From a virus (taxonomy: Duplodnaviria; Heunggongvirae; Uroviricota; Caudoviricetes; Autographiviridae), in the IMG/VR virus record IMGVR_UViG_2660238008_000004: a stretch of 13,828 nt of DNA; one strand, given 5' to 3'. The position numbers and the translations under genes are program-made. Positions within the stretch are counted from its first letter, which is position 1. Each line of letters begins with the position of its first letter. Positions 1-13,828 of the stretch are shown here, in pieces. The notes below the pieces were generated by a model. That model ran no database searches and was not told where the DNA came from. It saw only the letters and a program-made list of their open reading frames with translations.

Positions 1-127
1 GGTGCTTTTGCCGTTACGCACCACCCCGTCAGTAGCTGAACAGGAGGGACAGCTGATAGAAACAGAAGCCACTGGAGCACCTCAAAAACACCATCATACA
101 CTAAATCAGTAAGTTGGCAGCATCACC
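1..127 (-). mobile_element. IS1 insertion sequence, terminal 127 bp (rest lies beyond the window start)
   Basis: Reverse complement of 105-127 is GGTGATGCTGCCAACTTACTGAT, which I recognise as the IS1 left inverted repeat; the following bases match the IS1 left end including the start of insA (GTG at 70-72 on the minus strand, about 24 codons visible). Element/flank junction at 127/128. Recognition is from memory of the IS1 sequence. Confidence 0.85.
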
Positions 128-355
128 TGAGCAGTGTGTATTGAGTCCTTTTGTAGCTAAAGCTATTACAGATATTCCCGGCTTGAAAAATTGCACGTTT
201 ATGGTTGCCCCTCCCTCAACTGTATAGCTCGCCCGCGCCCCCGTGCGCATGTGCGTGCCCGCGCGTCAGGGGTCGCTGAGAAAACCCTAAGATTTTGCTC
301 ATCCGAGACAACCGTTGCAGGCGCGCGTTGCCGGGGCACACTACTAGTGTTTGAT

Positions 356-460: not shown

Positions 461-491
461 GTTTTGTGATACCAGATGGGTGAGGTGAAGC

Positions 492-1067
492 ATGAGGACT
501 TTTATCTACTGCCGCGTTTCAACACGCGAGCAGGATACGCAGAATCAGGTGCTGGCTATTGAGCGTGCCGGGTACACGGTGCCTGAGAGCAGGGTAATCA
601 GCGAGGACATTTCCGGCAGCGTTCAGGCTATGCAGCGCCCTAAGTTTCGAGCGATGGTTGAGCATAAGCTGGAAGCGGGAGATCAGCTTGTCGTGCTGAA
701 ACTGGACAGGCTGGGGCGCGACAACATCGACGTGCAACAGACCATCGACATGCTGTTAGAACGCGGCGTGAAGGTGGTGTCTCTTGACCTGCCAGCGCGT
801 GATCTGACTTCATCTGAGGGCAAGCTAATCCGCCAGATGTTTGGAGCCTTTGCTGAGTTCGAGCGAAACCGTATCCGTGAGAGGACGCTTGACGGGCTGG
901 AGAAGGCGAAAGCCAATGGCGTTAAGCTGGGACGCAAGGAAGCCACCGACACCACTCAAAAGGTGCAGGAGCTGCGGAGTGAGGGGCTGTCTCAATCGAA
1001 GGTAGCTAAGCGTCTCGGCGTTAGCGTGAGCACCGTTAAACGCCACTGGAACAAGGGCGAGGGATGA
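492..1067 (+). CDS. Serine recombinase (resolvase/DNA invertase family), 191 aa
   Basis: N-terminal catalytic motif YCRVSTREQ with the nucleophilic serine, LDRLGRD motif, and C-terminal HTH (SQSKVAKRLGVSVSTVKRH); size typical of Hin/Gin/resolvase proteins. GAGGTG ribosome-binding site 5 nt upstream of ATG 492. Confidence 0.9.
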   Translation: MRTFIYCRVSTREQDTQNQVLAIERAGYTVPESRVISEDISGSVQAMQRPKFRAMVEHKLEAGDQLVVLKLDRLGRDNIDVQQTIDMLLERGVKVVSLDLPARDLTSSEGKLIRQMFGAFAEFERNRIRERTLDGLEKAKANGVKLGRKEATDTTQKVQELRSEGLSQSKVAKRLGVSVSTVKRHWNKGEG

Positions 1068-1133
1068 TGACCTACAAGCGAATGAGGTGCTACGACTGGC
1101 CGTTACTGGGCTGTGGGTGATGGATGACCTACA
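1066..1133. repeat. 11-bp direct repeat GATGACCTACA (1066-1076 and 1123-1133) overlapping the stop codon of the serine recombinase gene
   Basis: Exact 11-mer twice, 57 bp apart, unlikely by chance. Function unknown; possibly part of a recombination or regulatory site. Confidence 0.5.
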
Positions 1134-1770
1134 GCTTTTGTATTTATTTCAGAGGGTTATGTTATACGTAATATCATAACGATATGATTTATAATGTATT
1201 TTCGTGTTACTTGCGGCTCTCGATGTGAAGAGGTGGCGGGGCTTTAGCCGTGCCAGACGATGAACATCGAGATCAGATTGTGAATGTGAGTTATCACTGA
1301 ACAATTCGAGGGATGGGGCAGGGGAAGGGATCAAAGGCTGCGTTGTCCAATCACTAAGCTAGATTTGAAGCTGGTCAACACGTTAGTAGTATCTTTAAAG
1401 TTGCATTTGAAATACATGTACAGGAAAGGGTTCTTCCCTTACATCCCTTCTCCTAAATGTAGTTACGAGTGCTTCGCTCTCTTCACTTGCTGCGCTTCTC
1501 GCTATGCTCCAGCCCGCTCCATCGCCTTTGGCTCATTCCCGGTCTTCGCCCGCTGCTGATGCTCGGCGACTCTACGCAACCGTGCTTGCCGTGGCAGGCA
1601 ACGCGGCGGGGATGTGTAGTGGAACGGTACTCTTTATCGGTATTGTTAATTTAATCAATCATATACTGTTATCGGTAGGTATTCTTCAAAACATCTTCAT
1701 TCATTTCTGTATCGTTCAATCATCTTTCTTTTTCGTTTCCTTTCAGGTCTTAGCCGTCGGTCATTGGTCT

Positions 1771-1876
1771 TACTGCCTGCTGTGCTACTGCCAGCTATGG
1801 CACGCCGTCACGGTTACTGTCTGTCACCTGTCCTACTGCCTTCACTGTCTGCCGTCTGTCAGTCCTACGGTCTGCC
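1771..1876 (+). repeat. Iteron-like array: five same-orientation copies of YACTGYC (1771, 1786, 1815, 1834, 1844) plus related GTCTGCC/GTCTGTC copies (1847, 1854, 1870) in a pyrimidine-rich tract
   Basis: Repeats seen directly in a region with no credible ORF; followed by an AT-rich block at about 1930-2040. Interpretation as replication-origin iterons or another protein-binding array is inference. Confidence 0.45.
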
Positions 1877-2330
1877 ATCCGTCATCAGTTCGGCGCTCGC
1901 TTGTTTCGGCTGCGCCGCGCTCGCTCTGCGTATCTAGCGATACTATATCACTATAGACACTTTCATAATTATCTATTGATATCAGTAACTTATATTTTTA
2001 ATTTTAAAGGCTACTAATAAGGAGATATAGAGCATTACTTTCCCGCTTTTGACCGACAAAAATCGCGCTGTTAAGTATTGCCAGCCCAGGCTCAGTAAGG
2101 CTTAGCGAGGTTGTGGTTAAAAATTGACCTAATGAAGGTATCTACTAAGGAGAAAGAATAACTCCCGAAGCGCGACAAACTCTCCGATTTTGAAAGTGAC
2201 TATTAAGGCAGATAAAGACACTGACACTGTTGCCGACATGAAAACCTCTATAAGGGCAGAGAGTCTGCCGCACCTGTACCACCGCCCCAACCTGAGCTAA
2301 TACCTACCCCTATTTTCTGGAGATTTCACC

Positions 2331-4175
2331 ATGCCAACAAACCTACGCCGCCTGCTTGCGCAGGCTGCCGACGCTGACCCGCTCAATACTGCGGACGCAG
2401 ATGTACAGCAAATGATCGCTGACGGGGTTGTTATTCGACGTTCCAAGATATGCCCCGTAAAGCGTAAGCCCGTTAAGGCGGCATACAACACAAAGACCGA
2501 AGAGTTTTATTACAATGCAGATGGCTCCGCGATGACCTTGCGGGAGTGGCGAACGCTGCACGGTGTTCAACCGAAGAAACAAAAACAGCGCTCTGACGCT
2601 GGGTTGCGGCAAGTCATCCAGCCCGGCGACGCGATTCACTGCCGACGCGCTGAGATTGAGCAATGGCTAAATAAAAAGCCTGCTCGTTATGTTGAACCAC
2701 TGCCGCCAGATTTCCCCGGCGTTCGCGTAGACGATGCCGCATTGAAACCGCGCGAGCACGCCGTGCCGGAATCAACAACCGGACAGAATGCTTTTCTCAA
2801 AGCCTGCCGCGAGTTTCTCATTTGCGATGAGAAGACCATGCGCCGAATTAACAGGGGCATGGGTAAACTGGAAGCGATGCGTAACGCAGATTTCAAACGC
2901 TACGGAGACTCAGGGGAGTTTCGTCAATTTTGGTGTGGAGAGTCGAAGCCTACCGAAGATAGATTTAATAATACAAATCATCATTGTGACCCGAACGGCT
3001 TGGCTGCTTCGCCGTCTGTGCCGCCACTGAATACTACGCCGTATGAGTTCCGCCCCCTGGCTCGCTGTGACCGAAACGCACGCGTTAGCCTGCTGCCACC
3101 TGATGGGCTGGAGTGGAGGCCGGGGCAATTGTCTGTTGCTGATGCGATCTTTTCCCGTGGCAGTGATGTGCTTGCCGTTCTGCCTACTGGGTATGGCAAA
3201 AGCGCTGCCTTCACTTACCCATTGATTTATGAATCCCGCGCTGGCGTTGGCCTGTCTGTTATCGTTGTTCCTACTAATACCCTTAAGCGTCAGATTCTCC
3301 GCCAGTTGCGGGAGGCTGGCGTTCACGCTGTGGCATTTGGTGACAAGCTGCCGAGGCACCGCAATGCGCAACAACTGGCGGGGCTGGCTGCCGGGGCGTT
3401 CCGGGTTGCAGTCGTTTCGCCTGAACATCTGGTTCCGTCGAGTCAGGTTCTCGCGGCGCTGATGGCTTATGGCGTTGATCGTTTTATTATCGATGAGGCA
3501 CACACGGTCAAAGACTGGGATTTCCGCCCAGCTTACGACGCAATGCAGCACACACTACAGAATGCCTTTCCTTCGGCTCAACGCTGCGTGTTTACGGCTA
3601 CGCTGCTACGCGAAAATGAGCGCAGTTTAATGGAGTCGCTTGGCTGCCGTGGCGATTACGTAACATTCCGCGCTGATGTTGCTCGCGAGAATATCCAGTT
3701 GACGCCAGTCAGACAGTGCCGCGAACGTTTCCGAGCGGCTATTGGTCTGGTCGAGGCTCTGCCGAAAGAAGAGAAGACGCTTATTCTCGTCAATGACCTT
3801 AAAACGTTGCGGGCGTACCTGAAACTCTTGGGCGACCGGGCGCGGCCATATCACTCGAAGACGATGCACCTGAGCAACGAGGAACGCCACGCAAACGCTG
3901 AGTGGTTTGCCTCTACGCCGGGCGCGATTCTTATTGCTACTAAAGCCTTCGGGCTGGGTGCTGATGTTCCTGATATCCGTAACGTTGTCGTGACATACGT
4001 CCCCGATGATTTGCCTGATCTCGTTCAGATGATTGGACGAGCCGGGCGCGATGGGGAACCTGCCCGCGCTTTTCTGCTGTGGTCATCGCTGGCGCTGGAT
4101 GTTGCGCCTGATGAGCTTGCTTACTTCTACCGCCCTGAAAACTGCAACTGGCAGTACATCGCTAAATACCTCTGA
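2331..4175 (+). CDS. RecQ-family (SF2) DNA helicase core with an unrecognised ~270-aa N-terminal extension; lacks RQC/HRDC C-terminal domains; 614 aa
   Basis: Walker A LPTGYGKS preceded by a motif-0-like segment (RPGQLSVADAIF); motif Ia IVVPTNTLKRQ; motif II with the RecQ signature IIDEAHTVKDWDFRPAY; motif III FTATL; motif VI MIGRAGRDG about 40 aa from the C-terminus. GGAG ribosome-binding site 8 nt upstream of ATG 2331. Confidence 0.85.
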   Translation: MPTNLRRLLAQAADADPLNTADADVQQMIADGVVIRRSKICPVKRKPVKAAYNTKTEEFYYNADGSAMTLREWRTLHGVQPKKQKQRSDAGLRQVIQPGDAIHCRRAEIEQWLNKKPARYVEPLPPDFPGVRVDDAALKPREHAVPESTTGQNAFLKACREFLICDEKTMRRINRGMGKLEAMRNADFKRYGDSGEFRQFWCGESKPTEDRFNNTNHHCDPNGLAASPSVPPLNTTPYEFRPLARCDRNARVSLLPPDGLEWRPGQLSVADAIFSRGSDVLAVLPTGYGKSAAFTYPLIYESRAGVGLSVIVVPTNTLKRQILRQLREAGVHAVAFGDKLPRHRNAQQLAGLAAGAFRVAVVSPEHLVPSSQVLAALMAYGVDRFIIDEAHTVKDWDFRPAYDAMQHTLQNAFPSAQRCVFTATLLRENERSLMESLGCRGDYVTFRADVARENIQLTPVRQCRERFRAAIGLVEALPKEEKTLILVNDLKTLRAYLKLLGDRARPYHSKTMHLSNEERHANAEWFASTPGAILIATKAFGLGADVPDIRNVVVTYVPDDLPDLVQMIGRAGRDGEPARAFLLWSSLALDVAPDELAYFYRPENCNWQYIAKYL

Positions 4176-4212
4176 GTCGAAAGGCTCTCCCTGATTCTCT
4201 GGAGTTAATCAT

Positions 4213-4650
4213 ATGCCTGTTACCGAACATGCGCAGCGTCGTGCTGCGCGTGCGGATGCGCTCATCACCGCACAACTAGCTTTCGCCCTGAATGGGTACA
4301 ACTGGGATGAACTGGCCGAACCTCATCGCAAGACCCTTAATCGTGAGGCCATCATTCGCGAGGTATTTACACCGCTGGAGCGATATTGCCTGCTGAATGA
4401 TTGCGAGCCGTGGGAGTGTCTGGCCGCTGTACTGAACCGCATGAAAAGGCCGGATGGCTCGCGTCGCTGGAAAGCCGTCCGGTTGTCCGACCGGGTTTTC
4501 AATGGCCGGGTGCATCCGGTACGCAAGACTCCTGATGAAGTTTACGCCGCCATTGCCCGCCGTTTGTTTCTGCCGAAGCCCGTGCATCAAGAAGTGATTC
4601 AGCACATCCGTGCGCTAGGCCTGTTACCAGTTGGAGATAACCACCAATGA
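4213..4650 (+). CDS. Hypothetical protein, 145 aa
   Basis: ORF with GGAG ribosome-binding site 8 nt upstream; co-directional with the helicase and 37 bp downstream of it; no recognisable motif. Confidence 0.6.
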   Translation: MPVTEHAQRRAARADALITAQLAFALNGYNWDELAEPHRKTLNREAIIREVFTPLERYCLLNDCEPWECLAAVLNRMKRPDGSRRWKAVRLSDRVFNGRVHPVRKTPDEVYAAIARRLFLPKPVHQEVIQHIRALGLLPVGDNHQ

Positions 4651-4856
4651 CGAAATCTGAATTTGAAGCCGGAGCATGGGAACTAAAAACCCTGCTGCTG
4701 GGTGCGTTGACGCGCAGGCTTAAGGAGGACGAGGCGGGAGAGTCACGCATGGCTGCTGCCGAGTTGTCATCCTGCGTGAACTTCCTCAAGCAGAACGCCG
4801 CCGACTCGCCTGATACAACCTTTAACAACGTGTTCCCGGAGGATGACGACCAATGA
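4647..4856 (+). CDS. Hypothetical small protein, 69 aa
   Basis: Start ATG overlaps the upstream stop (ATGA at 4647-4650), indicating translational coupling; GGAG 11 nt upstream. Confidence 0.5.
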   Translation: MTKSEFEAGAWELKTLLLGALTRRLKEDEAGESRMAAAELSSCVNFLKQNAADSPDTTFNNVFPEDDDQ

Positions 4857-5029
4857 CCCCTGAACAGTTCCGGCAATGGTTCGCCACGCTGCCGGAGAAA
4901 TATCAACGTGTAGTCCGCTTCATGTACGACAACGCCCGCAAGTCGGGCACACACACCGCGTCAAGCCTTGCGCTGATTCACACGTTGGTTACTGACCAGA
5001 TCAAATTTGATTCGGAGTTTAATTTATGA
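4853..5029 (+). CDS. Hypothetical small protein, 58 aa (below the ORF-track cutoff; MTPEQFRQWFATLPEKYQRVVRF...)
   Basis: Hand translation from ATG 4853, which overlaps the upstream stop (ATGA); GGAGG 11 nt upstream; its stop TGA 5027-5029 overlaps the next start ATG 5026. It fills an otherwise unexplained gap in a tightly packed operon. Confidence 0.45.
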   Translation: MTPEQFRQWFATLPEKYQRVVRFMYDNARKSGTHTASSLALIHTLVTDQIKFDSEFNL

Positions 5030-5589
5030 CTTTGAGTATTACCGATATCCAGCGCATTAACGCGCTGGCTCATAAGCACCTAAAGAACAATGAAGAGATT
5101 GCAGCGGAGACAGGTCATACCCTGACCGATATTGATGCAGTAATCCGTGGCGCCTATGTCGATGACTTGGCCGAACATTGGAAAGACGATGCTGATATTA
5201 ATCTGGCGGAGTACAACGCCATCCGCAGCCGCTATAAGCCCGGCAAGCTGCACCGCGATACAGAGTTTATGATTGCCCGCGATATGCTGATTCGCCCTGA
5301 GACGGTGCTGGCTATCGCCCATTCCCGCTTTAGCAACGCCCACACGCACCCGGTACAGAAACCCTTGAAGGTGAAGCCAGCGAAGCCGAAAGTAGTGCGC
5401 AAGTTAGTGCCTACTGATTTAGATGAAATCCACAAGTTAGAGCGCTTCGGTTGGCCTGCTGCGGAGATCGCCGGGAAGCTGGGCGTCCCTGTTGAGGTCG
5501 TCGCGCATGTGCAACGCTGCCTGAGAAATCGTTGGTCGTACCCGGATACTCTGGAGTCTGTTAACTCCAAATTCAGCGAGGCTGAATGA
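5026..5589 (+). CDS. Hypothetical protein, 187 aa, possible C-terminal HTH
   Basis: ORF translationally coupled to its upstream neighbour; C-terminal segment WPAAEIAGKLGVPVEVVAHVQRCL looks HTH-like (weak). Confidence 0.6.
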   Translation: MTLSITDIQRINALAHKHLKNNEEIAAETGHTLTDIDAVIRGAYVDDLAEHWKDDADINLAEYNAIRSRYKPGKLHRDTEFMIARDMLIRPETVLAIAHSRFSNAHTHPVQKPLKVKPAKPKVVRKLVPTDLDEIHKLERFGWPAAEIAGKLGVPVEVVAHVQRCLRNRWSYPDTLESVNSKFSEAE

Positions 5590-5822
5590 TGGCAGAGAAC
5601 GAACCGCTGCACCCCGCCGTTAACCCTGATCTCTACGTGAACCTTGACGAACAACGCGAAGGATACGCTCCGATTGAATCACGGGGTTGGGATGTGCTGA
5701 CGCAGAACCTGACCGGGAAAGGTCGAACTGACCCCAGCCAAACACTTAACCAGAATCCGAAACAACGCCCGCGCGGCTCCGTTGGTGAGCGTCGTTGGCT
5801 TCGTAAACGTGGATTACTTTAA
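5586..5822 (+). CDS. Hypothetical small protein, 78 aa
   Basis: ATGA start/stop overlap with the upstream gene; basic C-terminus. Confidence 0.5.
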   Translation: MMAENEPLHPAVNPDLYVNLDEQREGYAPIESRGWDVLTQNLTGKGRTDPSQTLNQNPKQRPRGSVGERRWLRKRGLL

Positions 5823-5834
5823 CGAGGAATTACC

Positions 5835-6074
5835 ATGAGCAAAACTATCGTATTGCTGCCGCCCCGCAAGAATACAGACTGGGCTGCACAATTAAAGCTG
5901 ATTTCTGAATCGCTTGAGGTGAGTCAGGCAGACCTCGCCCACGCCTATCAGGTTGATCGTCGGGATATGGGTAAAGCGTATCACGGTGTGCGCAAACTGC
6001 CGGAACGTTGTGTGCCTGTTCATATGCTGTTGTTAGCGCAGGTACACGACTTTAGAGCATTATCAGGAGAGTAA
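5835..6074 (+). CDS. Hypothetical small protein, 79 aa
   Basis: ORF with GAGG ribosome-binding site upstream of ATG 5835; no recognisable motif. Confidence 0.5.
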   Translation: MSKTIVLLPPRKNTDWAAQLKLISESLEVSQADLAHAYQVDRRDMGKAYHGVRKLPERCVPVHMLLLAQVHDFRALSGE

Positions 6075-6077
6075 TTT

Positions 6078-6758
6078 ATGTCTGACCAGAATGTTAATCC
6101 GTACCTTTCCGGTGCTGATGCTGCATCGCAGCAATCGCCATACATGGCTGCACCTGTTGGAGTTGACAATGGAGCATCCCGCTTTAGCTCTGCGCCTGCT
6201 GATGCTGATTTCCTCCGTACCCAACCCGTTAACGGCAATGATGGCGGACAATGGAATAATGGCAATATCGCAAATCAGCAAGACCAGAACGCTGACAGCG
6301 CTGGGGCGCAAGTGGGCGACACACTGCAATTACAGGATGGCACCACTGTTGAGTTGACTCCTGAACTTCATGGGCTGATGGGGCAGTTTCACCAGTCTGT
6401 CGAAAGCCAGCTAGGTCAGGGTACAGTTGACGCGATGTTGCAGTACGCTGGCACGCTCGACGCCGGGACGCAATCAACCCTTGAACGGATGGTCATGTCT
6501 GGCGATCCCGCGCAGATGTCGCGTGCGGTTCAGTATCTGCAAGAGCGTATGGCTGGCGGTTCCATTACCGGTTACGTCCCGAACGGCCAGACTGCCGCGC
6601 AACCTGTCGGAATGTCACATGCTGAGTTTATAGCAGCGTATGACCAGCTTTCGCAGTGGGCGCAGCAATCAGGGTATGGCCCCGGCCATCGCCAGTACGA
6701 TGAACAATACCGCGCTCTGGTTGCGCAGCGCTCCGCTGGCAAACGTGCTGGTCGCTAA
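6078..6758 (+). CDS. Hypothetical protein, 226 aa, with low-complexity Q/N/G/A/S/D-rich N-terminal ~100 aa and a predicted helical C-terminal half
   Basis: AGGAG ribosome-binding site upstream of ATG 6078; the compositional bias is visible in the translation. Possible scaffold or other virion-associated protein given the capsid-like gene downstream (speculative). Confidence 0.6.
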   Translation: MSDQNVNPYLSGADAASQQSPYMAAPVGVDNGASRFSSAPADADFLRTQPVNGNDGGQWNNGNIANQQDQNADSAGAQVGDTLQLQDGTTVELTPELHGLMGQFHQSVESQLGQGTVDAMLQYAGTLDAGTQSTLERMVMSGDPAQMSRAVQYLQERMAGGSITGYVPNGQTAAQPVGMSHAEFIAAYDQLSQWAQQSGYGPGHRQYDEQYRALVAQRSAGKRAGR

Positions 6759-6897
6759 CGCCCAACTGTGGAATGCGCCCTGCAAGACCGAGTGCGCACC
6801 GACCCGGTACTACCACACCAATCTATGCGCATGAGTCCCCGCAAGCCGCATTCTGCGCGGCATCTGAAAGCCTGTTTTTAATTAACCGAGGTTCGTA

Positions 6898-7311
6898 ATG
6901 AGTACCTGTAATTTCCATGCTGTGGAGCGTGTCGCTGACGTGCGCCCGGATTTCGCCTTGCCGCTGGGTAGATGTGATCATGTTTACCCTGAGCGTGTGC
7001 CGCACGTTTTCAATCCAGACGAAGCGGTTTATATCGTTGCACGGTCTGCCACATCCGGCACCCGCACATCTGGCGTTAGCCGTGGGCTTTCCCCTGTGCT
7101 GCCGCCGAAGATGGCCGAGCGGATGCGCGAACGTGAACGGCACGAGAAGAATCGAGCCAGACCCCGCAAGGTAATCACTGAGGCGATACGCGCTGACATT
7201 ATCGTTCGCTCTGCAAAAGGCCAGAAGAATCGTTACATTGCAAGCAAGGTTGGCGTGTCTGAAACCTCTGTGCGGAAGGTGTTGAACATGGCGCGTATGA
7301 GTGCGCACTAA
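6898..7311 (+). CDS. Putative DNA-binding protein with C-terminal HTH, 137 aa
   Basis: C-terminal IRADIIVRSAKGQKNRYIASKVGVSETSVRKVL resembles a resolvase/sigma-type HTH; GAGG ribosome-binding site upstream; the gene is isolated by 139-bp and 198-bp intergenic gaps. Confidence 0.55.
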   Translation: MSTCNFHAVERVADVRPDFALPLGRCDHVYPERVPHVFNPDEAVYIVARSATSGTRTSGVSRGLSPVLPPKMAERMRERERHEKNRARPRKVITEAIRADIIVRSAKGQKNRYIASKVGVSETSVRKVLNMARMSAH

Positions 7312-7425
7312 TGCAAGGTAATACGTTCGCCTTACTTCACGCGCACTAACCCCTGAGAACCGCGCCAGCTCTGGCCTCAAAACGCCCATTTCGGGGCACC
7401 TCATCCCTTTAATCGATACCGTTCT

Positions 7426-7450
7426 GAATCCTGCCTCGGCGGGAGGATTC
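7426..7450. promoter_or_regulatory. Inverted repeat GAATCCTgCC-(tcggc)-GGgAGGATTC about 60 bp upstream of the capsid-like gene
   Basis: 7-bp perfect arms (GAATCCT/AGGATTC) extended to 9 of 10; no T-run follows, so not a classic intrinsic terminator; candidate operator or RNA hairpin. Confidence 0.3.
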
Positions 7451-7509
7451 CGCACGTCTGTGCCATGACGATGGCGCGGGCTTCATCAACCTACGTAGGA
7501 GTTTTGTTT

Positions 7510-8505
7510 ATGGCTGATACTTCGTACAGTCCCGATCTGTTTCGCCCACATTATGGCGGGGTGGAATCCGACAATGATATTCACATCGAGGCTTATGACC
7601 GGGATGTCCAGACCCGTTTAGAGTCCAAATCCGTATTTCTGGCCGAGGGGCTGTCTACATACAGGCCGCTGAAAGGCAGCAACCAATACCGCATTGATCG
7701 CCTGAGTGGTGATCTTGAGGTGAAGGGCAGAACCGCAGGGCAATCGCTGGAGCCTACCGCCGTTAAGTCGGACAAGTTGGTTATCTCTGTGGATACGCTG
7801 AGTTATATCCGCGTCCCGATTGACTATCAGGACGATTGGACAGCACCCACATTTCGCGCAGAGCTGAGCCGCAATATCGGCACTGCGCACGCTAAGTTCT
7901 ACGACGAAGCGCACACCATCCAGTTAATCAAAGCGACTGACTTTGTACCGCCGCCGACACTGCAACCAACGTTTAACCCGCTTACGAATAACGTTGTCTC
8001 GCTCGACCTGACAGCGGGGAGCGAAGAGGACGCCGCAAACGAATTGGTTCACGCCGTCAAAGCGGCTGCTAATCGCTTCCTCACTGAGAAAGATATTCCG
8101 GTGGCCGAGCTGGTGCTTCTCATTGACCCTGCATGGTTCAGCATCCTGATGGAACATAAGAAGCTGATGAACGTCCGTTACAGCCGGGATAGTGGCAACG
8201 ATTACGCATGGCGTCGCGTTGGCTATGTCGCTGGGGTGCGAGTCATTGAGCTGAACAGTTACCCGCAGGAAGTCATTACCGGGCATGAACTGGGCGCTGA
8301 TTATGACGTTACCGCAGAGGAAGCGATGACGAGGGCGACGCTGTTTAAACCTTCCTCTGTGCTGCTGACGGTCGAAGCGCAGAGCGTCATCAATCGCCAG
8401 TGGGATGATGAACGCGAAATGACAATGGTGATGGACTCATATCGCCTGTTCAACGTTGGGCTGCGTCGTCCTGACTGCGTTATCAATTTCCGACAAGCTG
8501 CATAA
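7510..8505 (+). CDS. Hypothetical protein, 332 aa; possible HK97-fold major capsid protein (weak resemblance to T7 gp10-type capsid proteins)
   Basis: Strong AGGAG ribosome-binding site 8 nt upstream of ATG 7510 (preferred over the track start 7465, which has none). By-eye similarity to recalled T7 gp10 segments (KLVISVDTLSYIRVPIDYQDD versus KVITIDGLLTADVLIYDIEDA; LIDPAWFSIL versus CDPDSYSAIL; C-terminal GLRRPDCVINF versus GGLRPEAAGAVVF). The product call is tentative. Confidence 0.4.
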   Translation: MADTSYSPDLFRPHYGGVESDNDIHIEAYDRDVQTRLESKSVFLAEGLSTYRPLKGSNQYRIDRLSGDLEVKGRTAGQSLEPTAVKSDKLVISVDTLSYIRVPIDYQDDWTAPTFRAELSRNIGTAHAKFYDEAHTIQLIKATDFVPPPTLQPTFNPLTNNVVSLDLTAGSEEDAANELVHAVKAAANRFLTEKDIPVAELVLLIDPAWFSILMEHKKLMNVRYSRDSGNDYAWRRVGYVAGVRVIELNSYPQEVITGHELGADYDVTAEEAMTRATLFKPSSVLLTVEAQSVINRQWDDEREMTMVMDSYRLFNVGLRRPDCVINFRQAA

Positions 8506-8521
8506 CTGGAGGGGCTGAGTC

Positions 8522-9031
8522 ATGGTTAATGATGCTTACGCCCCTGAGCTGCTGTGTTCCCTTTTCCTGTATGACCCGGTGACAGGCCGCCTGCACCATA
8601 AAGCTAACCGACGCCGGGTTAAGGCTGGCTCCTATGCTGACTCCACCCGGCGAGCTGATGGCTATCGTCAAGTTGCCCTGCGACTTGATGGCAAGCAGTA
8701 CCAGCTAAAAGCCCATCGCGTGGCGTGGATTCTTGCGCATGGCGCTATTCCTCATGGTAAGCAGATCGATCACATCAACGGTATCCGTGACGACAATCGC
8801 CTATGCAATCTGCGCTTGGTTACGCAGCGGGAAAACGACCAGAACCGACGCAAGGCAAGGGGGTATAGCTGGAATAAGGGCTGTAGAAAATGGGAGGCTT
8901 ACATACGCGTTGATGGTGTACTCCGTCACCTTGGCTTATTTACTACCGAAGTGGCGGCGCGTGCTGCCTATCTAAAAGCTAAAGCCAGATGCCATCCCTC
9001 AACGCCAGCCGATTTATTGCAGGCTGCCTAA
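8522..9031 (+). CDS. HNH endonuclease (HNH_3-type) with C-terminal AP2-like DNA-binding domain, 169 aa
   Basis: Motif HRVAWILAHGAIPHGKQIDHINGIRDDNRLCNLRLVTQRENDQN (H-N-H with conserved asparagines) followed by KWEAYIRVDGVLRHLGLFTTEVAARAAY (AP2-like); GGAGG ribosome-binding site upstream of ATG 8522. Confidence 0.85.
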   Translation: MVNDAYAPELLCSLFLYDPVTGRLHHKANRRRVKAGSYADSTRRADGYRQVALRLDGKQYQLKAHRVAWILAHGAIPHGKQIDHINGIRDDNRLCNLRLVTQRENDQNRRKARGYSWNKGCRKWEAYIRVDGVLRHLGLFTTEVAARAAYLKAKARCHPSTPADLLQAA

Positions 9032-9049
9032 TCCTCGGAGGTTCCATTA

Positions 9050-9475
9050 ATGGCTGATGAAAAGCCGATTAGAGCGCTGGCAGATGATGACCCACGCCGC
9101 CAGCGGTACGCTGAACTGTTGGCGCAGGCTGGCCGCATGTCTATTCCCCGGCTGCATCCGGGCGATGCTAATAGTGTTATGAGTCAGCTTGCGACGATGC
9201 TTGGCGCACCTGTCCCGATAGTCGGTGCTATGACTGAGCACGCCGCTGCATGGCGTGTCTGTCTGCTGGATCAAGGGCTTGGCGATCTTCTGGATGGCTT
9301 GAGTAAGCAGGTGCTGACCGTCTTCTTTCTGCTTTGCTGGAGAGATAGCGCCTTGCGATTGGCAGGTAAGCAAAAGGAACGGCTTACAGCGGCCAGCGAG
9401 GGTTTGACCATTGAGCAATACCGGGCAATGCACCCGGCTTACAGAGAGGATAAAGAAGATGATAACCACAATTAA
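9050..9475 (+). CDS. Hypothetical protein, 141 aa (small-terminase-like role is only a positional guess)
   Basis: GGAGG ribosome-binding site 8 nt upstream of ATG 9050; no recognisable motif. Confidence 0.5.
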   Translation: MADEKPIRALADDDPRRQRYAELLAQAGRMSIPRLHPGDANSVMSQLATMLGAPVPIVGAMTEHAAAWRVCLLDQGLGDLLDGLSKQVLTVFFLLCWRDSALRLAGKQKERLTAASEGLTIEQYRAMHPAYREDKEDDNHN

Positions 9476-9758
9476 ATTAAGGTGGCGGTACATCGAGCCG
9501 CCGCCAATGACTGGCACACTTGCTTACCTGAAACAGTGGGTAATAGATACCGGAGAGCCTGAGCTTGAAGCTGAGTTTCGTAAGCTGCTGGGGCTAATGC
9601 GCCGCAATGGTATCAGTGACGAACGCGTTAATGCGTTGGCCGATGAGCTTTATGCTTTGGTACGCCAGCGCCAGTGCGAAGAATATGAAGCCTGCAAGCG
9701 GGCTTCATCTGACAATGGAGACTTTGAATCATGGTTACACGGACAGACCAGCTATTAA
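9459..9758 (+). CDS. Hypothetical protein, about 99 aa
   Basis: Start chosen at ATG 9459 (GAGAGGA upstream; overlaps the preceding gene by 17 nt) rather than the track start 9411; start position is uncertain. Confidence 0.4.
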   Translation: MITTIKLRWRYIEPPPMTGTLAYLKQWVIDTGEPELEAEFRKLLGLMRRNGISDERVNALADELYALVRQRQCEEYEACKRASSDNGDFESWLHGQTSY

Positions 9759-10159
9759 GAAAAGCTATGCGGGGCTATCTGGAACACCTTGGCAATATGC
9801 CACTGGCGGAACGGATTACAAACGCTGCTGCATTCGAAGATGTTTATCGCTTCCTGTTGAATGGTTCCGGGCGGCTGGAGTTGCGCCGCGCTGATGTGGC
9901 CGCTGTCCGTGTCTTCCTGTGGAATTATCAATACCGACGCTGTGCGGTGACAGGTAAGCCGCTGCGCCTTGCGTCTGCCGTGCTGGATCACTGCCACCGA
10001 ACCGGGCGCGTGCGTGCTGTGGTGCATCGCTCTGCTAATGCTGCTGAGGGTGGCTATTATGTAGGGCGGGTGTGTGGACTCTCACCCGGTAGCATGAATT
10101 TCATGCTACCAGCCTACCGCCGCCACTACAAGGGGCTGGGTATTATTTATCCAGCATAA
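9731..10159 (+). CDS. Endonuclease VII-like protein, 142 aa
   Basis: Segment CAVTGKPL...LDHCHRTGRVRAVVHRSANAAEG parallels the T4 endonuclease VII core (C-x2-C ... DHDH ... VRGLLCNLCNAAEG) recalled from memory, with several zinc-ligand cysteines replaced by His/Ser. Start 9731 overlaps the upstream gene by 28 nt. Confidence 0.55.
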   Translation: MVTRTDQLLRKAMRGYLEHLGNMPLAERITNAAAFEDVYRFLLNGSGRLELRRADVAAVRVFLWNYQYRRCAVTGKPLRLASAVLDHCHRTGRVRAVVHRSANAAEGGYYVGRVCGLSPGSMNFMLPAYRRHYKGLGIIYPA

Positions 10160-10246
10160 CATTGGTCATGGCTCTATTTATTTTATTTTCATGAGGTTAC
10201 ATGTTGCTGTGGCTGCCTATTTACTTGCTCGTATTTAAAACAATTC

Positions 10247-10275
10247 TTGACGGATTGATGTAGATTGCGTAATCT
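10247..10275 (+). promoter_or_regulatory. Sigma70-type promoter: -35 TTGACG (10247-10252), 17-bp spacer, -10 TAATCT (10270-10275), with AT-rich upstream tract
   Basis: Near-consensus hexamers with ideal spacing, about 60 bp upstream of the small ORF at 10337; seen directly. Confidence 0.5.
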
Positions 10276-10336
10276 CCACTTAAAATAACTGCCTACAATG
10301 TGTGCAGGCCAATCACCGAAAAACAGGAGGTACAAT

Positions 10337-10492
10337 ATGACAAAGGCGAAAATCAGCCCCGTATCGACTGGTATGAGTAGGGATGCTCTGAATGCTCTTA
10401 TCAAGACAACGCGTACTGTAGCGCGTAAAAGTTCCAGAGAAACTGATGAGCGTTTAGCTGAATACAGTAAAGTACATGCCGCTTGCAATTGA
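10337..10492 (+). CDS. Small basic protein, 51 aa; candidate antitoxin/partner of the downstream toxin-like gene
   Basis: Strong AGGAGG ribosome-binding site 6 nt upstream of ATG 10337; overlaps the downstream ORF by 17 nt; does not resemble YafN/Phd-type antitoxins as I recall them. Confidence 0.5.
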   Translation: MTKAKISPVSTGMSRDALNALIKTTRTVARKSSRETDERLAEYSKVHAACN

Positions 10493-10949
10493 GTTTGATT
10501 GCTGTGAAAAACTCGCCAATGATGGCGAGTTTCTTCCTTTTTATCAGGAGTTCTGTCGCTATAAGCAACTAAGTGCAGAGCATTCCCGCCCCCGATATTC
10601 CATCCAAAAACTTTTTGCATCTATTTCGCTGCTCTTTGGCAGAGATAGGGACAATGTTGATGAAGATAAGCCGTATCATCAGAAAAGAGAAGGTTTAACA
10701 CATCTACATGTGAGGCAGGAAGACAGTGTCTGGGAGGATGACAATGGGCATCCACTGGTACAATGGAAATGTAAAAGTAACAGCTATTTGATATATTCGT
10801 ATTTTGTATTCTCAGGTACAAGGCACTACTATATTGTTGATTTTATTGATCATGATGCCCATGCAAATTGGGACAATCAAGAAGCAATACAAATGTGGAT
10901 AGATGAAGCTAAACAATATCGAGAACGTATAACAGAAGCGGCTGCATAG
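10476..10949 (+). CDS. YafO-like toxin candidate (type II toxin family), 157 aa
   Basis: By-eye similarity to E. coli YafO recalled from memory: EFCRYKQ versus DFISYKR, LFGRDRDNVDED versus IFGRDALYDDSF, HLHV versus HIHL, and C-terminal HDAHANWDNQEAIQMWIDEA versus EPHKLARDNNQMHKIGKMAE. Poor own ribosome-binding site, consistent with coupling to the upstream small ORF. Confidence 0.45.
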   Translation: MPLAIEFDCCEKLANDGEFLPFYQEFCRYKQLSAEHSRPRYSIQKLFASISLLFGRDRDNVDEDKPYHQKREGLTHLHVRQEDSVWEDDNGHPLVQWKCKSNSYLIYSYFVFSGTRHYYIVDFIDHDAHANWDNQEAIQMWIDEAKQYRERITEAAA

Positions 10950-10977
10950 GAAGCCGATATTATTCGGCTTCTTCTCT
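10950..10977 (+). terminator. Hairpin GAAGCCG-(8 nt loop)-CGGCTTC followed by TTCTCT, immediately after the toxin-like gene stop
   Basis: 7-bp stem seen directly; the U-tract is weak (TTCTCT). It lies between convergent genes, 8 bp from the minus-strand integrase stop. Confidence 0.35.
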
Positions 10978-10984
10978 AAGCATT

Positions 10985-12193
10985 TCATTTAATTAATTCA
11001 TAATCTATTAATTCAATATACCGGCGCATCTCTAAAGGGGATGCTGCGTTTTTTGAATATGTCTTAAAACTCTCAGTGCTACCTCGTTCGTGGCCTACAA
11101 GCAGAGCGATCCTATCTTCTGGCACTTGAGCACGGTCGAGTTGTTGCACAAACGCATGGCGGAGTGAGTGAAACACTTTTCTCTCTGCGGCAAGTTCGCC
11201 AAGAGCTTTACGCTTTGCCCGTGTGAACTGCTGCGTATGCCACGTTGAGCGCTTCCCATCCGCCCGGTCTGTAATTGACGCGTGATTGAACAGAAAACCG
11301 CTATGTGTGGTTTTGAGCAATGATTTCACGAGGGGGATTAGCTTGCTGTGTACTGGGACGATTCGTGCCGCGCTCTTGGTCTTCCCCTCGGTGATCTCAA
11401 AGCACAAAACGCCCTCGATGGTTTTAATACTGCTCTCACGCAGCGTACATATTTCATTGATCCGCATACCGCTGTAAGCACCAATAGCCGTTACCGCCTT
11501 CATCTCGTCATCAAGCAAGGTATAGACCTTTGCCAGCTCTCCCGGTGCGAAGACTTCATAGCTGACCTTGCTGCTTTTTGCTTCGAGTGCATGACCACGC
11601 CAAGGGTTATCCTGTGGCGCATCGTGATAGCGATTGCGTGCCAAATCCCATATCTGCGCCAGTGCACTGATATAGTTCTGGATGGTTTGGGGCGCTCGCT
11701 CAGTTTTGAGTTTATCTAACCAGCCTGTAACTATGGTTCGGTTAATATCTCGCAACTGAACATCTTTCTTTTTCAGGTGGGTTAACAGCACCTCTACGGC
11801 TTTATTGGTCTTGGATAGCGTGGTTAGCTTTCGCTTCTCGCTGTATTGAAGCAGGTACAAATCACGCATTTTTAGCAAGGAAGGGCAAGCCTGAATCGAT
11901 GCACCAAACGATGCGGGGGCTTCCTTGGCGTACACACTGACACGGCGTAGCTCATCAATGATTTGGTCTACAGATGAGCCGCCTTGTGGCTTTAGCAGAT
12001 TCCGTAAGCGAGTCCATTCCAGAGCAATAGCATCGCGAAACAATCGCGCTTGCCGTATGTCTCGTGTCCCTGTGCTTTTCATAAAGTAGCGTTTCCCTTG
12101 GAACAGGTGACGCATATAGCTGGGGATAGCTATCCGCACGAGGTAATTCCCGCAGGGATCTAAAACTAGATAACGATCTCTCTTGAAACTCAT
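10985..12193 (-). CDS. Tyrosine recombinase / phage-type integrase, 402 aa
   Basis: Catalytic residues in conserved context: GMRINEI (Arg), HSLRHAF (His-x-x-Arg), LVGHERGSTESFKTYSK (His and Tyr nucleophile); N-terminal arm-binding-like region (GKRYFMKSTGTRD). Its 5' end lies 134 bp from the tRNA fragment. Confidence 0.9.
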   Translation of the reverse strand: MSFKRDRYLVLDPCGNYLVRIAIPSYMRHLFQGKRYFMKSTGTRDIRQARLFRDAIALEWTRLRNLLKPQGGSSVDQIIDELRRVSVYAKEAPASFGASIQACPSLLKMRDLYLLQYSEKRKLTTLSKTNKAVEVLLTHLKKKDVQLRDINRTIVTGWLDKLKTERAPQTIQNYISALAQIWDLARNRYHDAPQDNPWRGHALEAKSSKVSYEVFAPGELAKVYTLLDDEMKAVTAIGAYSGMRINEICTLRESSIKTIEGVLCFEITEGKTKSAARIVPVHSKLIPLVKSLLKTTHSGFLFNHASITDRADGKRSTWHTQQFTRAKRKALGELAAERKVFHSLRHAFVQQLDRAQVPEDRIALLVGHERGSTESFKTYSKNAASPLEMRRYIELIDYELIK

Positions 12194-12326: not shown

Positions 12327-12357
12327 CGTGCCGGTTCGAGTCCGGCCTTCGGCACCA
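12327..12357 (+). other. 3'-terminal fragment of a tRNA-Leu gene (T-arm, 3' acceptor strand, CCA), not a complete tRNA; candidate att core / direct repeat
   Basis: CGTGCCGGTTCGAGTCCGGCCTTCGGCACCA: T-stem GCCGG/CCGGC around loop TTCGAGT, then CTTCGGC-A-CCA. Matches the 3' end of E. coli tRNA-Leu(CAA) leuX as recalled. No D-arm or anticodon arm upstream; upstream sequence diverges at 12326. Confidence 0.75.
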
Positions 12358-12370
12358 AAAGTATGTAAAT

Positions 12371-12395
12371 AGACCTCAACTGAGGTCTTTTTTTA
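12371..12395 (+). terminator. Rho-independent terminator (AGACCTC-aact-GAGGTCT followed by TTTTTTT)
   Basis: Perfect 7-bp stem, 4-nt loop and 7-T run immediately downstream of the tRNA 3' fragment; consistent with the native tRNA terminator. Confidence 0.75.
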
Positions 12396-12479
12396 TGCCT
12401 GAAATCCGCGCCACACAAGGCTTTTCCAGCTTTTCTCCTCAACTGAAGTCAACCTGACTCAACCCACATCAACAGGCTT

Positions 12480-12531
12480 GTGAGTATACTAATGAGTATA
12501 TTTGCCGATTCGATATTGCTTGTATACTCAC
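12480..12531. promoter_or_regulatory. Repeats in the integrase upstream region: GTGAGTATAC (12480-12489), TGAGTATA (12493-12500) and inverted GTATACTCAC (12522-12531)
   Basis: 10-bp inverted repeat with an extra direct copy, 27-78 bp upstream of the integrase start; candidate integrase arm-type sites or operator. Seen directly; function inferred. Confidence 0.4.
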
Positions 12532-12557
12532 GAGATACCAATGGAAGGAAGACCATT

Positions 12558-13826
12558 ATGGCCCTAACGGATACTAAAGTTCGCTCTGCGAAACCTGAGG
12601 AGAAAGAGTATTCACTTGTTGACGGCGACGGCATGTCCTTACTTGTAAAACCTGGCGGTTCAAAGTATTGGCGATTTCGTTTCCGTTTTGGCGGTAAACA
12701 ACATTTGATGGCGTTCGGCGTTTACCCGGATGTTTCACTGGCGGATGCGCGGAAGAAAAGGGAAGAGGCCAGAAAGCTGGTAGCTGCTGGTATCGATCCT
12801 CGTGAGCATAAGCGTGCTGTGAAAGAAGAGCAGGCGAAAGAGATTATTACTTTCGAGAAGGTTGCCAGAGAGTGGCTCGTAACCAACCAAAAATGGTCGG
12901 AAGATCATGCTAATCGTGTAAAAAAGAGCCTGAAGGACAATATCTTCCCGGCAATTGGTGCTCGCAATATTGCTGAACTGGGCACCCGCGATCTGTTAAT
13001 TCCTATTAAAGCCGTGGAGAAATCCGGACGTCTTGAAGTGGCTTCCCGCCTTCAACAGCGCACCACGGCCATCATGCGTTATGCAGTGCAAAGCGGGTTA
13101 ATTGATTACAATCCGGCGCAAGAGATGGCGGGGGCGGTTGCTTCCAGTAATCGACAGCATCGTCCGGCGCTGGAGTTAAAGCGTATCCCGGAATTACTCC
13201 AGAAAATCGATGAATACACCGGCAGGCCACTAACCCGCTGGGCAACCGAACTTACTCTGCTTATTTTTATTCGATCCAGTGAGCTGCGTTTTGCTCGCTG
13301 GTCAGAAATCGATTTTGAAACGTCAATGTGGACCATCCCGCCTGAGCGAGAACCTATTCCCGGTGTGAAACATTCTCAGCGAGGTTCAAAGATGCGCACA
13401 CCTCATCTGGTGCCGCTTTCAAAGCAGGCGCTAGCGATCCTGAAGCAGATAAAACAGTTCTGTGGCGAACATGAACTGATTTTTATTGGCGATCACGATC
13501 CACGTAAGCCCATGAGCGAGAACACGGTAAACAGTGCGCTACGGGTGATGGGTTATGACACTAAGGTTGAAGTTTGCGGCCACGGCTTCCGCACAATGGC
13601 CTGTAGTTCGTTAATTGAGTCAGGACTATGGTCGAAGGATGCGGTGGAAAGGCAGATGAGCCATATGGAACGCAATTCGGTGAGGGCGGCGTATATCCAT
13701 AAAGCGGAACATCTGGATGAGCGTAAACTGATGTTGCAGTGGTGGGCTGATTTTCTGGATGCGAACAGAGAGAAGAGTATCAGTCCGTTTGAATATGCAA
13801 AGGTTAACAATCCGCTGAGAAGGTGA
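12558..13826 (+). CDS. P4-family tyrosine integrase, 422 aa; stop codon at 13824-13826, two bases before the window end
   Basis: N-terminus MALTDTKVRSAKPEEKEYSLVDGDGMSLLVKPGGSKYWRFRFRFGGKQ is the characteristic P4-type integrase arm-binding domain; C-terminal catalytic region (HGFRTMACS, RQMSHMERNSVRAAY). Start chosen at ATG 12558 with AAGGAAG ribosome-binding site rather than track start 12480. Orientation matches the tRNA fragment, as in tRNA-then-int islands. Confidence 0.9.
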   Translation: MALTDTKVRSAKPEEKEYSLVDGDGMSLLVKPGGSKYWRFRFRFGGKQHLMAFGVYPDVSLADARKKREEARKLVAAGIDPREHKRAVKEEQAKEIITFEKVAREWLVTNQKWSEDHANRVKKSLKDNIFPAIGARNIAELGTRDLLIPIKAVEKSGRLEVASRLQQRTTAIMRYAVQSGLIDYNPAQEMAGAVASSNRQHRPALELKRIPELLQKIDEYTGRPLTRWATELTLLIFIRSSELRFARWSEIDFETSMWTIPPEREPIPGVKHSQRGSKMRTPHLVPLSKQALAILKQIKQFCGEHELIFIGDHDPRKPMSENTVNSALRVMGYDTKVEVCGHGFRTMACSSLIESGLWSKDAVERQMSHMERNSVRAAYIHKAEHLDERKLMLQWWADFLDANREKSISPFEYAKVNNPLRR

Positions 13827-13828
13827 CA

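Follow-up and report, generated by a model that had tools for sequence, protein, structure and literature searches.

The window analyzed here, the whole 13,828-nucleotide stretch of IMG/VR record IMGVR_UViG_2660238008_000004, comprises almost all of an integrative element of ~15 kb at the tRNA-Leu gene leuX, together with the start of a second element. From its gene content and homologies, the first of these (hereafter, the island) is probably a truly helper-dependent phage satellite of Bonnellvirus, a genus of virulent T7-like coliphages in the Autographiviridae. Suggestive of this are an integrase with att sites, a replication helicase, a capsid/short-scaffold pair and a protein resembling the small terminase subunit (TerS), to which are added mimics of the junction between phage genome ends, a size about one third that of the helper and cargo hotspots, features that neither a prophage nor a plain defence island would need. 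The island has the generic make-up of a satellite, in that its set of virion and packaging genes is incomplete and it possesses its own integrase with 32-bp att repeats, and we class it as a new family in the established category of phage satellites. The original prediction, which dealt with positions 6078-10159, had proposed an element that makes its own capsid and packaging accessory factors and borrows portal, terminase and tails from a helper; as far as sequence reaches, this proposal is supported.

Foremost among the genes that tie the island to Bonnellvirus is that of a 331-residue major capsid protein of the T7/phiKMV type with the HK97 fold (7510..8505, + strand; phrog_267, E 6.6e-71). 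Its reading frame is open from 7465, the true start being the ATG at 7510 behind an AGGAG motif; this is also the RefSeq call and is supported by alignments that begin at residue 1 of phage capsid proteins. All of the open reading frames (ORFs) on which the original prediction drew were found in place on the + strand in the ORF list, with the start of the capsid gene moved to 7510. The capsid protein is 56% identical to that of Lidtsur from residue 1 to the end (E 3e-132) and matches 790 phage records, all at less than 60% identity and the best of them from Bonnellvirus (Lidtsur, glasur and J8-65). Compared with solved capsid structures, it aligned from residue 1 to ~325 with 23sf (1.5e-79), 8eld (7.3e-76) and 8vb0 (1.4e-60). 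The T7-like HK97 fold first suggested for this product, then counted as 332 residues, thus holds over its full length, whereas the description of the resemblance as weak does not. At the DNA level the gene is only ~65% identical to those of altidsur and mellemsur, and its ratio of nonsynonymous to synonymous substitution rates (dN/dS) of 0.08-0.12 is indicative of purifying selection. In a neighbour-joining tree built without bootstrap, the capsid proteins of this and related islands form one clade, sister to the Bonnellvirus/LIMEzero clade. Among 78 other IMG/VR loci carrying the capsid gene, those tabulated (the shorter ones and any with island markers) were ordinary phage pieces with portal-scaffold-capsid-tube synteny or other structural genes.

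The gene at 6078..6758 (+) encodes a short scaffolding-protein homologue of 226 residues with a Q/N/P-rich N-terminus and a scaffold-like C-terminal region of ~100 residues. Searches of this Q/N-rich protein against phage scaffolds by tblastn, phmmer and hmmsearch returned no match, and profile-profile comparison with a large alignment alone succeeded: hhalign of seven island proteins against 71 scaffolds, defined as the products encoded upstream of the capsid gene in loci of Autographiviridae, aligned island residues 123-226 with residues 307-411 of the Lidtsur scaffold, both to the C-terminus (97.3%, E 2.2e-11), in agreement with the scaffold-like character first attributed to the protein. 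The pairwise alignment to the 411-residue Lidtsur scaffold was collinear and reached both C-termini, but was weak. The N-terminal two thirds could not be aligned to phage scaffolds, and membership of the scaffold family therefore applies to the C-terminal domain alone. A search of solved structures with this protein gave nothing useful, and its family is tiny, with nine matches among 1.84 billion representatives, all from within the family itself. The dN/dS of the gene is 0.12-0.30. Altogether, the protein appears to be a scaffold shortened from 411 to 226 residues in which the C-terminal domain has been retained. Judging by other phage scaffolds, this domain is the expected site of capsid-protein binding.

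The packaging apparatus is represented by an ORF lying outside the region first considered, at 4647..4856 (+), whose 69-residue product resembles the N-terminal half of the T7 gp18 family. It is 48% identical over 44 residues to the TerS of Lidtsur (pairwise E 4e-6), and when a hidden Markov model (HMM) of its family was run against 2283 six-frame ORFs of three Bonnellvirus genomes, the TerS ORFs of the three phages ranked first to third (4e-5, 3e-4 and 0.014); hhalign to TerS gave 82% and an E of 1e-5. Its sole Pfam match is PF11123 (DNA_Packaging_2; 0.0026), at 18.2 bits below the family cut-off of 27.5, and its sole PHROG match is the TerS family phrog_891 (0.02), into which the Lidtsur TerS also falls. 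Residues 13-54 alone align, to TerS residues 11-58. Given this partial alignment and the score below threshold, we refer to the protein as TerS-like and not as a TerS.

Two noncoding segments of the island are copies of DNA found at the ends of Bonnellvirus genomes. Comparison by blastn of window positions 128-4300 with 50,697 phage records produced matches to Bonnellvirus and close relatives only, in the noncoding DNA that runs from the last gene (endolysin) to the first (SAMase). The first segment, segA (177..263, +), corresponds to the last ~40 bp of right-end unique DNA followed by ~45 bp from the beginning of the direct terminal repeat of the phage; positions 177-220 are 91% identical to altidsur and mellemsur, and the similarity onward to 263 is 73% relative to J8-65. 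The J8-65 record has identical annotated direct terminal repeats of 259 bp that begin with TCGAC, the mature left end, and segA straddles the first base of the repeat (..CCTCCC/TCGAC.., the stroke marking the boundary). The second segment, segB (1765..1994, +), is a copy of left-end unique noncoding DNA, 90% identical to altidsur over 231 bp, with a core at 1828-1993 that is 97.6% identical over 166 bp to both mellemsur and altidsur (E 1e-78). In the phages it reaches from ~90 bp past the terminal repeat to the AT-rich stretch that precedes the early sigma-70 promoters; in altidsur coordinates, the repeat extends from 1539 to about 1811, segA from 1501 to 1543 and segB from 1898 to 2120. The island thus holds phage DNA from both sides of the terminal repeat, including the position of the left-end cut, and instead of the GC-rich repeat of the phage it has between the two segments ~1.5 kb of its own with a serine recombinase gene.

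These arrangements make segA a candidate packaging recognition and cleavage site. In T7, one account (PMC9860248) describes a Pac site composed of PacB and PacC, of which PacB is recognized by the small terminase gp18, and the same source reports, citing Chung & Hinkle 1990, that plasmids bearing the concatemer junction of T7 undergo packaging. segA is kept in every island lineage that could be examined at this position, including islands whose capsid proteins are just 58% identical, and stands upstream of the recombinase gene in lineages 1 and 2 (see below) despite their differing recombinase alleles. A role of segA as the crossover site of the recombinase was rejected, as segA is 80-95% conserved while the recombinases are 26-36% identical. 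segB was found, unannotated and as a single copy each, in 52 of 5426 E. coli genomes, which is consistent with its being specific to this island. Its identity to the phages (97.6%) exceeds that to sister islands (86-90%), suggestive of recent exchange with, or tracking of, those phages. We note that segB contains TATCACTATAGACACTTTCAT (1939-1966), whose core TCACTATAG resembles a T7-type promoter, and that a second, inverted copy of the TATCACTATAGACACTTTCAT type occurs in the phages just past the RNA polymerase gene and before the structural genes (L008 21472-21492; L015 19605-19687); the element may be a promoter, an origin or a site bound by a protein. A search for a phage RNA-polymerase promoter consensus in J8-65 by way of repeated k-mers gave nothing useful.

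No portal, large terminase or tail gene was found anywhere in the element by inspection of the ORF list and Pfam and PHROG scans of all ORFs, which extends to its full length the lack of these genes originally noted; no ORF resembles a portal or TerL or has the size for one. The element is also without a DNA polymerase or RNA polymerase gene. Nor were structural genes present on either flank in five genomes. The host DNA is that of E. coli, strain EC09 being 100% identical to the window apart from an IS1 end at 1..128. This IS1 end, in sequence an exact reverse complement of an IS1 terminus, has a match in an IS1A copy at another place in EC09, a strain that lacks the insertion here, and represents an insertion in the left cargo region, outside the element core. 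In relatives lacking the IS1, the DNA to its left consists of two to three variable cargo genes (AbiJ-NTD4, DUF3800, Rap1a and unknowns) followed by tRNA-Leu and ahr, with no prophage; the complete structural module whose presence there would have made this an ordinary prophage fragment is thus not seen.

The boundaries of the element are those of an integrated unit. In EC09 and four other genomes it lies directly after tRNA-Leu (leuX), beside ahr. The right boundary, attR (12327..12358, +), is a 32-bp direct repeat of the leuX 3' end, of which EC09 has an exact copy (the tRNA 3' end) 14,625 bp away, and the same pair, 32 bp long and exact or near-exact, bounds the element in the other four genomes. 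Distances from repeat to repeat are 14,625, 14,803, 15,061, 15,404 and 15,702 bp, an IS3 making up part of the last figure, and a metagenomic copy of the island measures 15,158 bp. Island size stays within 14.4-15.4 kb despite differing cargo, or about one third of the 41-42.5 kb Bonnellvirus genome. A 15.2-kb Logan contig considered as a free or circular form of the island was rejected as such, since it simply breaks at the att repeats. A tyrosine integrase with a DUF6538 N-terminus (10985..12193, - strand; PF00589 2.7e-16, PF20172 1.1e-6) is found at the same end in all island lineages, and the ORF list shows the genes from 2331 to 10159 to form a tightly packed, co-directional block on the + strand. 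This block is present in 59 of 5426 complete E. coli genomes, the reference enteropathogenic strain E2348/69 among them, as one chromosomal copy each at 87-100% identity; its recurrence with constant gene order indicates that the arrangement is not due to chance.

Context look-ups revealed three diverged lineages of the island across the Enterobacteriaceae: lineage 1, in E. coli and E. cloacae (L012, L013 and L098); lineage 2, in E. hormaechei (L010), whose capsid protein is 58% identical to that of the window and whose other proteins are 35-47% identical; and lineage 3, which is metagenomic (L100). In lineages 1 and 2, for which full-length context was available, the genes run from the recombinase and the RecQ-family helicase through small ORFs, one of them TerS-like, to the scaffold-like and capsid genes, then genes for a ~130-residue and a ~90-residue protein, the Endo VII (endonuclease VII)-like gene and the DUF6538-integrase; on the short contig of L100 the arrangement is identical over the part between capsid gene and integrase. 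Core genes other than those of the capsid and scaffold have dN/dS values below 0.5 where divergence permits an estimate, the value of 0.99 for the ORF starting at 4213 being uninformative as the L009 sequence with which it was compared is nearly identical. Relative to strain STK77-E (L009), divergence forms a mosaic: identity is ~99-100% over the helicase gene and onward as far as the ORF at 5835 (2331-6074), and the capsid to Endo VII-like genes differ by a dS of 0.19-0.33, suggestive of recombination between island variants.

From this anatomy and these homologies, we infer a life cycle involving induction, assembly of small capsids on helper portals, redirection of the helper terminase and transfer. 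Upon infection by a matching phage, the island would excise and replicate. Its capsid protein and short scaffold would assemble on the portal and core proteins of the helper into capsids sized for ~15 kb, and the large terminase of the helper, redirected or assisted by the TerS-like protein, would recognize the mimicked junction and package island DNA, helper tails then finishing the particle. Debranching of replicated DNA ahead of packaging may fall to the Endo VII-like protein, and the serine recombinase may resolve or circularize injected DNA; the latter, guessed from the position of its gene, is the most speculative of these steps. We incline, with slightly better than even confidence, to the more specific view that the islands represent the first satellite family of virulent T7-like coliphages, one that would build small capsids from a private capsid protein and scaffold, use the portal and large terminase of the helper, apply a TerS-like specificity factor at a copied junction and have a recombinase in the position of the terminal repeat. 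Part of this same view is that the strategy would be intermediate between capsid remodelling, as in P4 and SaPIs, and the full capsid autonomy of capsid-forming phage-inducible chromosomal islands (cf-PICIs). Our searches of the literature found no description of satellites of Autographiviridae, of T7-like phages (the T7 supergroup) or of Bonnellvirus. A 2025 preprint describes satellite-like defence islands at the same tRNA-Leu locus without mention of capsid genes (bioRxiv 10.1101/2025.09.15.676423).

Several points weigh against the satellite reading. Its induction, excision, packaging and transfer rest on inference from gene content. Most of the phage terminal repeat is not recognizable in the island, leaving the formation of unit-length ends unexplained; at the right boundary of the repeat, the alignment was unconvincing and no claim is made for it. 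segB is detectable in the E. coli lineage only; at its position the Enterobacter islands carry another sequence, similar in style, that matched no phage of the collection. segA is found, too, in a hotspot of a P2-like phage, though this is explained by co-transfer with a cargo gene (below). Neither a phage-type promoter nor an inducer-sensing regulator was identified in the island, and the lines of evidence for the TerS-like protein, taken one by one, are modest, its Pfam score lying below the cut-off. Finally, the IMG/VR matches are predicted proviruses and not virion DNA.

That no evidence of packaged island DNA was found would also suit the alternative that survives best, and which we consider unlikely: that of a non-transmissible interference or defence island in which the homologues of capsid, scaffold and TerS, together with the copied junction DNA, would serve as poisons or decoys. 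By co-assembling with helper proteins or titrating them, and by soaking up terminase, they would block Bonnellvirus, and the island itself would go unpackaged. The position of the element at leuX, a defence-island locus, and its cargo of YafO, TIR, AbiJ, AbiTii and restriction-modification genes are in keeping with such a role, as are the truncation of the TerS-like protein and the loss from the Endo VII-like protein of three zinc-ligand cysteines, which could leave it able to bind without cleaving. A decoy would not, however, need an integrase with intact att repeats, a narrow size of 14.4-15.4 kb, or a full-length capsid protein held at a dN/dS of ~0.1 together with its own scaffold over ~40% divergence. 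It accounts less well than a satellite does for the integrase, the att repeats, the constancy of size and the maintained capsid-scaffold pair and, as known satellites both interfere and transfer, it is largely a subset of the satellite reading.

Far less probable is a decayed mosaic, in which a generic island accidentally caught fragments of lytic phages, for example through repair driven by a homing endonuclease, that are now functionless. In the E. coli lineage the capsid gene does have a homing-type HNH gene immediately downstream, and the 98% identity of segB speaks of recent DNA exchange with phages. Yet the capsid gene is also present where the HNH gene is elsewhere or non-adjacent; the core genes are all intact and under purifying selection across lineages 40-58% identical; the island capsid proteins form a single old clade and not a series of separate recent captures; and the phage-derived parts make up the exact head-assembly and packaging set, which is no random sample. 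That the island is a fragment of an ordinary temperate prophage, its other structural genes lost or elsewhere, as its integrase, capsid gene and nucleases and the listing of two copies as viral contigs in IMG/VR might suggest, is scarcely credible given an element bounded by att repeats with tRNA-Leu at its left, five genomes without flanking structural genes, the same reduced gene set in all lineages, and capsid relatives that are virulent Autographiviridae without integrase.

If a satellite, the island has pieces that each find a precedent in a different known one, namely Ccm, Rcm/CpmB and, for the packaging parts, the TerS of SaPIs and the cos copies of P4 and SaPIbov5. SaPIbov5 bears a copy of the packaging site of its helper on a PICI backbone. 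It resembles the island in being a satellite with a homologue of the helper major capsid protein and without portal, large terminase and tails, this homologue, Ccm, redirecting capsid size (PMC8569155). It differs in its Gram-positive host, its temperate siphovirus helpers and its cos/HNH packaging, direct terminal repeats being the type of the island's presumed helper; for its part, the island shows no PICI backbone, has its own scaffold and TerS-like gene, and encodes a capsid protein 56% identical over its full length to the helper type. CpmB of SaPI1 and Rcm of SaPIpT1028, alternative internal scaffolds, are satellite proteins that interact with the helper capsid protein and are proposed to alter capsid size by competing with the helper scaffold, Rcm being described as acting in a manner akin to CpmB (PMC12409344), and may be likened to the 226-residue protein with its retained scaffold C-terminal region of ~100 residues. 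Both act on the capsid protein of the helper, whereas the island brings its own, and neither is related to the island protein in sequence.

The gene set of cf-PICIs consists of portal, protease, head-tail connectors, TerS, TerL and HNH. Like the island, cf-PICIs have their own capsid protein and use helper tails, but they reportedly encode every protein required for capsid formation and packaging (bioRxiv 10.1101/2022.09.08.507074); of these the island lacks the portal, protease, connectors and TerL, having the capsid gene and an unrelated HNH only, and is not a cf-PICI. With P4 it shares the tRNA-Leu site, a size about one third of the helper genome, a putative copy of the helper packaging site, defence hotspots and the exchange of cargo with P2-like hotspots. 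P4 itself sets an external scaffold on the P2 capsid without a capsid gene of its own, and has a temperate helper and cos packaging. None of the P4 markers Psu, Sid, Delta, Epsilon, alpha primase-helicase and AlpA was matched by any ORF of the island in Pfam, PHROG or NCBIfam, and no AlpA, primase or Fis match indicative of a classical PICI or PICMI was obtained, a RecQ-family helicase being present instead; the layout accordingly departs from both P4 and classical PICIs, as first surmised. PLE of Vibrio cholerae likewise places an external scaffold, on the capsid protein of phage ICP1. PLE and the PICMIs of Vibrionaceae are similar to the island as chromosomal satellites of virulent phages (PMC10803314; 10.1101/2024.04.22.590561), but have unrelated gene sets and helpers that are not Autographiviridae. 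A parallel for the junction DNA is the T7 Pac plasmid, on which, according to PMC9860248, PacB and PacC junction DNA is packaged by the T7 terminase; the island carries the analogous DNA that flanks the Bonnellvirus junction. The Pac plasmid is a laboratory construct, whereas the island is natural and is without most of the terminal repeat between its mimic blocks.

Phages of the T7 supergroup, with their direct terminal repeats, own RNA polymerase and strictly lytic cycle, serve as central models and also find use in phage therapy. If the satellite reading is true, lytic podoviruses of Enterobacteriaceae would be parasitized by satellites too, and a new capsid strategy would be at work, with the capsid protein and scaffold the satellite's own and the portal, terminase motor and tail borrowed. 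The islands would also offer a natural system in which to study packaging specificity in phages with direct terminal repeats, and would explain the spread of part of the leuX defence cargo among strains and into P2-like hotspots. Present as they are in about 1% of complete E. coli genomes, they could lower the efficacy of Bonnellvirus therapy and spread defence genes.

Among the remaining genes, that of a small serine recombinase of the resolvase/invertase family (492..1067, +; PF00239 1.7e-36 and HTH_7; phrog_125 DNA invertase 8e-55) is flanked by segA and segB, a position that in the phage is filled by most of the terminal repeat. Its position is conserved and its allele replaced, with 26-36% identity in islands L009 and L010. 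The ~260 bp after its stop codon (1068-1330) are 89% conserved between the E. coli island and an E. cloacae island (L012 3485-3746), and the rest of the intergenic DNA diverges; the conserved stretch, which has no Rfam match, could be a site for the recombinase, an origin or an RNA. The RecQ-family DEAD-box helicase (2331..4175, +; DEAD 1e-21, Helicase_C 5e-14, recQ_fam 9e-42), presumed to serve island replication, is conserved in all lineages. Over its whole length it fits PDLC02858, a 'DpdF' sub-model of PADLOC (1e-276), which is the sole PADLOC match in the element. As no other Dpd genes are present, identification of the island as a Dpd system was rejected; PDLC02858 was probably built from this island family, and PADLOC may mislabel such islands as Dpd components.

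The helicase gene is followed by that of a conserved 145-residue protein (4213..4650, +) without family match, kept in islands L009, L012 and L010, and then, beyond the TerS-like ORF, by four conserved, translationally coupled small ORFs (4853-5029, 5026-5589, 5586-5822 and 5835-6074, all +) that overlap or abut. All four are kept in the three island lineages examined, and their sole match is a weak helix-turn-helix (HTH) one for 5026-5589. Between the scaffold-like and capsid genes lies that of a putative HTH protein of 137 residues (6898..7311, +; HTH_23 4e-4, below the Pfam cut-off), in a variable slot occupied in L012 and L010 by unrelated ORFs of 115 and 160 residues.

Downstream of the capsid gene is a free-standing HNH_3 endonuclease of the homing type with an AP2-like part (8522..9031, +; PF13392 8.8e-19, phrog_99 7.5e-53). 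Its relatives occur in multiple copies in phiKMV-like and Xp10-like phages, where they are annotated as homing endonucleases, and its homologue is located upstream of the helicase in L010 (53% identical) and away from the capsid gene in L100. The suggestion that it might assist cos cleavage in the manner of HK97 gp74 was abandoned on the grounds of this HNH_3/AP2 homing kinship, the lack of an adjacent terminase gene and a position that moves between lineages; it may have been domesticated as a nuclease directed against the helper, or be a selfish passenger. The conserved helical protein of 141 residues encoded at 9050..9475 (+), 31% identical to its L100 counterpart, has homologues only on Enterobacteriaceae chromosomes (Escherichia, Citrobacter, Cronobacter, Enterobacter, Phytobacter and Klebsiella). 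It had been put forward for a fold check as a small terminase, an assignment that found no support: its AlphaFold2 (AF2) model is all-helical and of moderate confidence (predicted local distance difference test, pLDDT, 66) and matches no solved fold. A conserved 99-residue protein (9459..9758, +, with the RefSeq start) is kept in all lineages. It was considered as a second TerS-like protein and set aside: TerS genes were the top three of the 2283 phage ORFs, at values that are not significant (E 0.36-0.65; hhalign 1%), and the match covers the same core helix as that of the 69-residue TerS-like ORF.

The Endo VII-like protein (9731..10159, +), recognized as such in the original prediction and now matched to PF02945 above the cut-off (3.7e-6, 27.2 bits vs 23.6), has an N-terminal extension of ~60 residues. 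It also matches phrog_423 (1.3e-15), and the top three phage ORFs retrieved with its family HMM are phage Endo VII genes (0.002-0.007). Three of its four zinc-ligand cysteines are replaced and the first is kept in all island homologues, whereas phage homologues keep the four, the changes being CxxC to CxxT, DHDH to DHCH and CxxCN to HxxAN. With three of these cysteines gone its activity is uncertain, and it may be a non-canonical enzyme or a non-cleaving binder of junctions. Searches of solved structures with this protein and with the 141-residue protein gave nothing useful.

Of the two variable cargo hotspots, one lies between attL and segA (window 128-491) and the other between the Endo VII-like gene and the integrase (10160-10984); across copies (L001, L002, L009, L012, L096, L097 and L098) they contain YafO toxin, TIR, AbiJ-NTD4, AbiTii, DUF3800, Rap1a, Eco47II and NmeDI-type restriction-modification genes, and unknowns. 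In the window the right-hand hotspot carries a YafO-family toxin gene (10476..10949, +; PF13957 1.9e-10), whose slot is taken in other copies by genes for TIR, AbiTii or restriction-modification or by unknowns. A stretch of about 90 bp similar to segA (177-263) was found in the Z/fun hotspot of the P2-like phage R18C (record positions 3001-3091). It adjoins there a gene of 230 codons that is 85% identical to a cargo gene in the left hotspot of the E2348/69 island (L096 4983-5675), which indicates that cargo has moved with flanking island DNA between this island family and P2-like phages. The view of segA as a P2-related feature was rejected for this reason, the R18C copy being explained by co-transfer with the 85%-identical cargo gene.

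Scans for tRNAs, tandem repeats, internal repeats and Rfam families over the whole window gave nothing useful, and a sigma-70 promoter scan showed no excess over shuffled expectation and no clear host promoter for the long operon. The second island abuts attR (window 12359-13828; L001 24231-28100) and begins with a P4-type integrase gene (12480 onwards; Arm-DNA-bind_3). In EC09 the genes that follow this integrase are of the BREX-like DUF1819 and DUF1788 types and are interrupted by an IS1; tandem accretion of this kind has already been described for the leuX locus (bioRxiv 10.1101/2025.09.15.676423).

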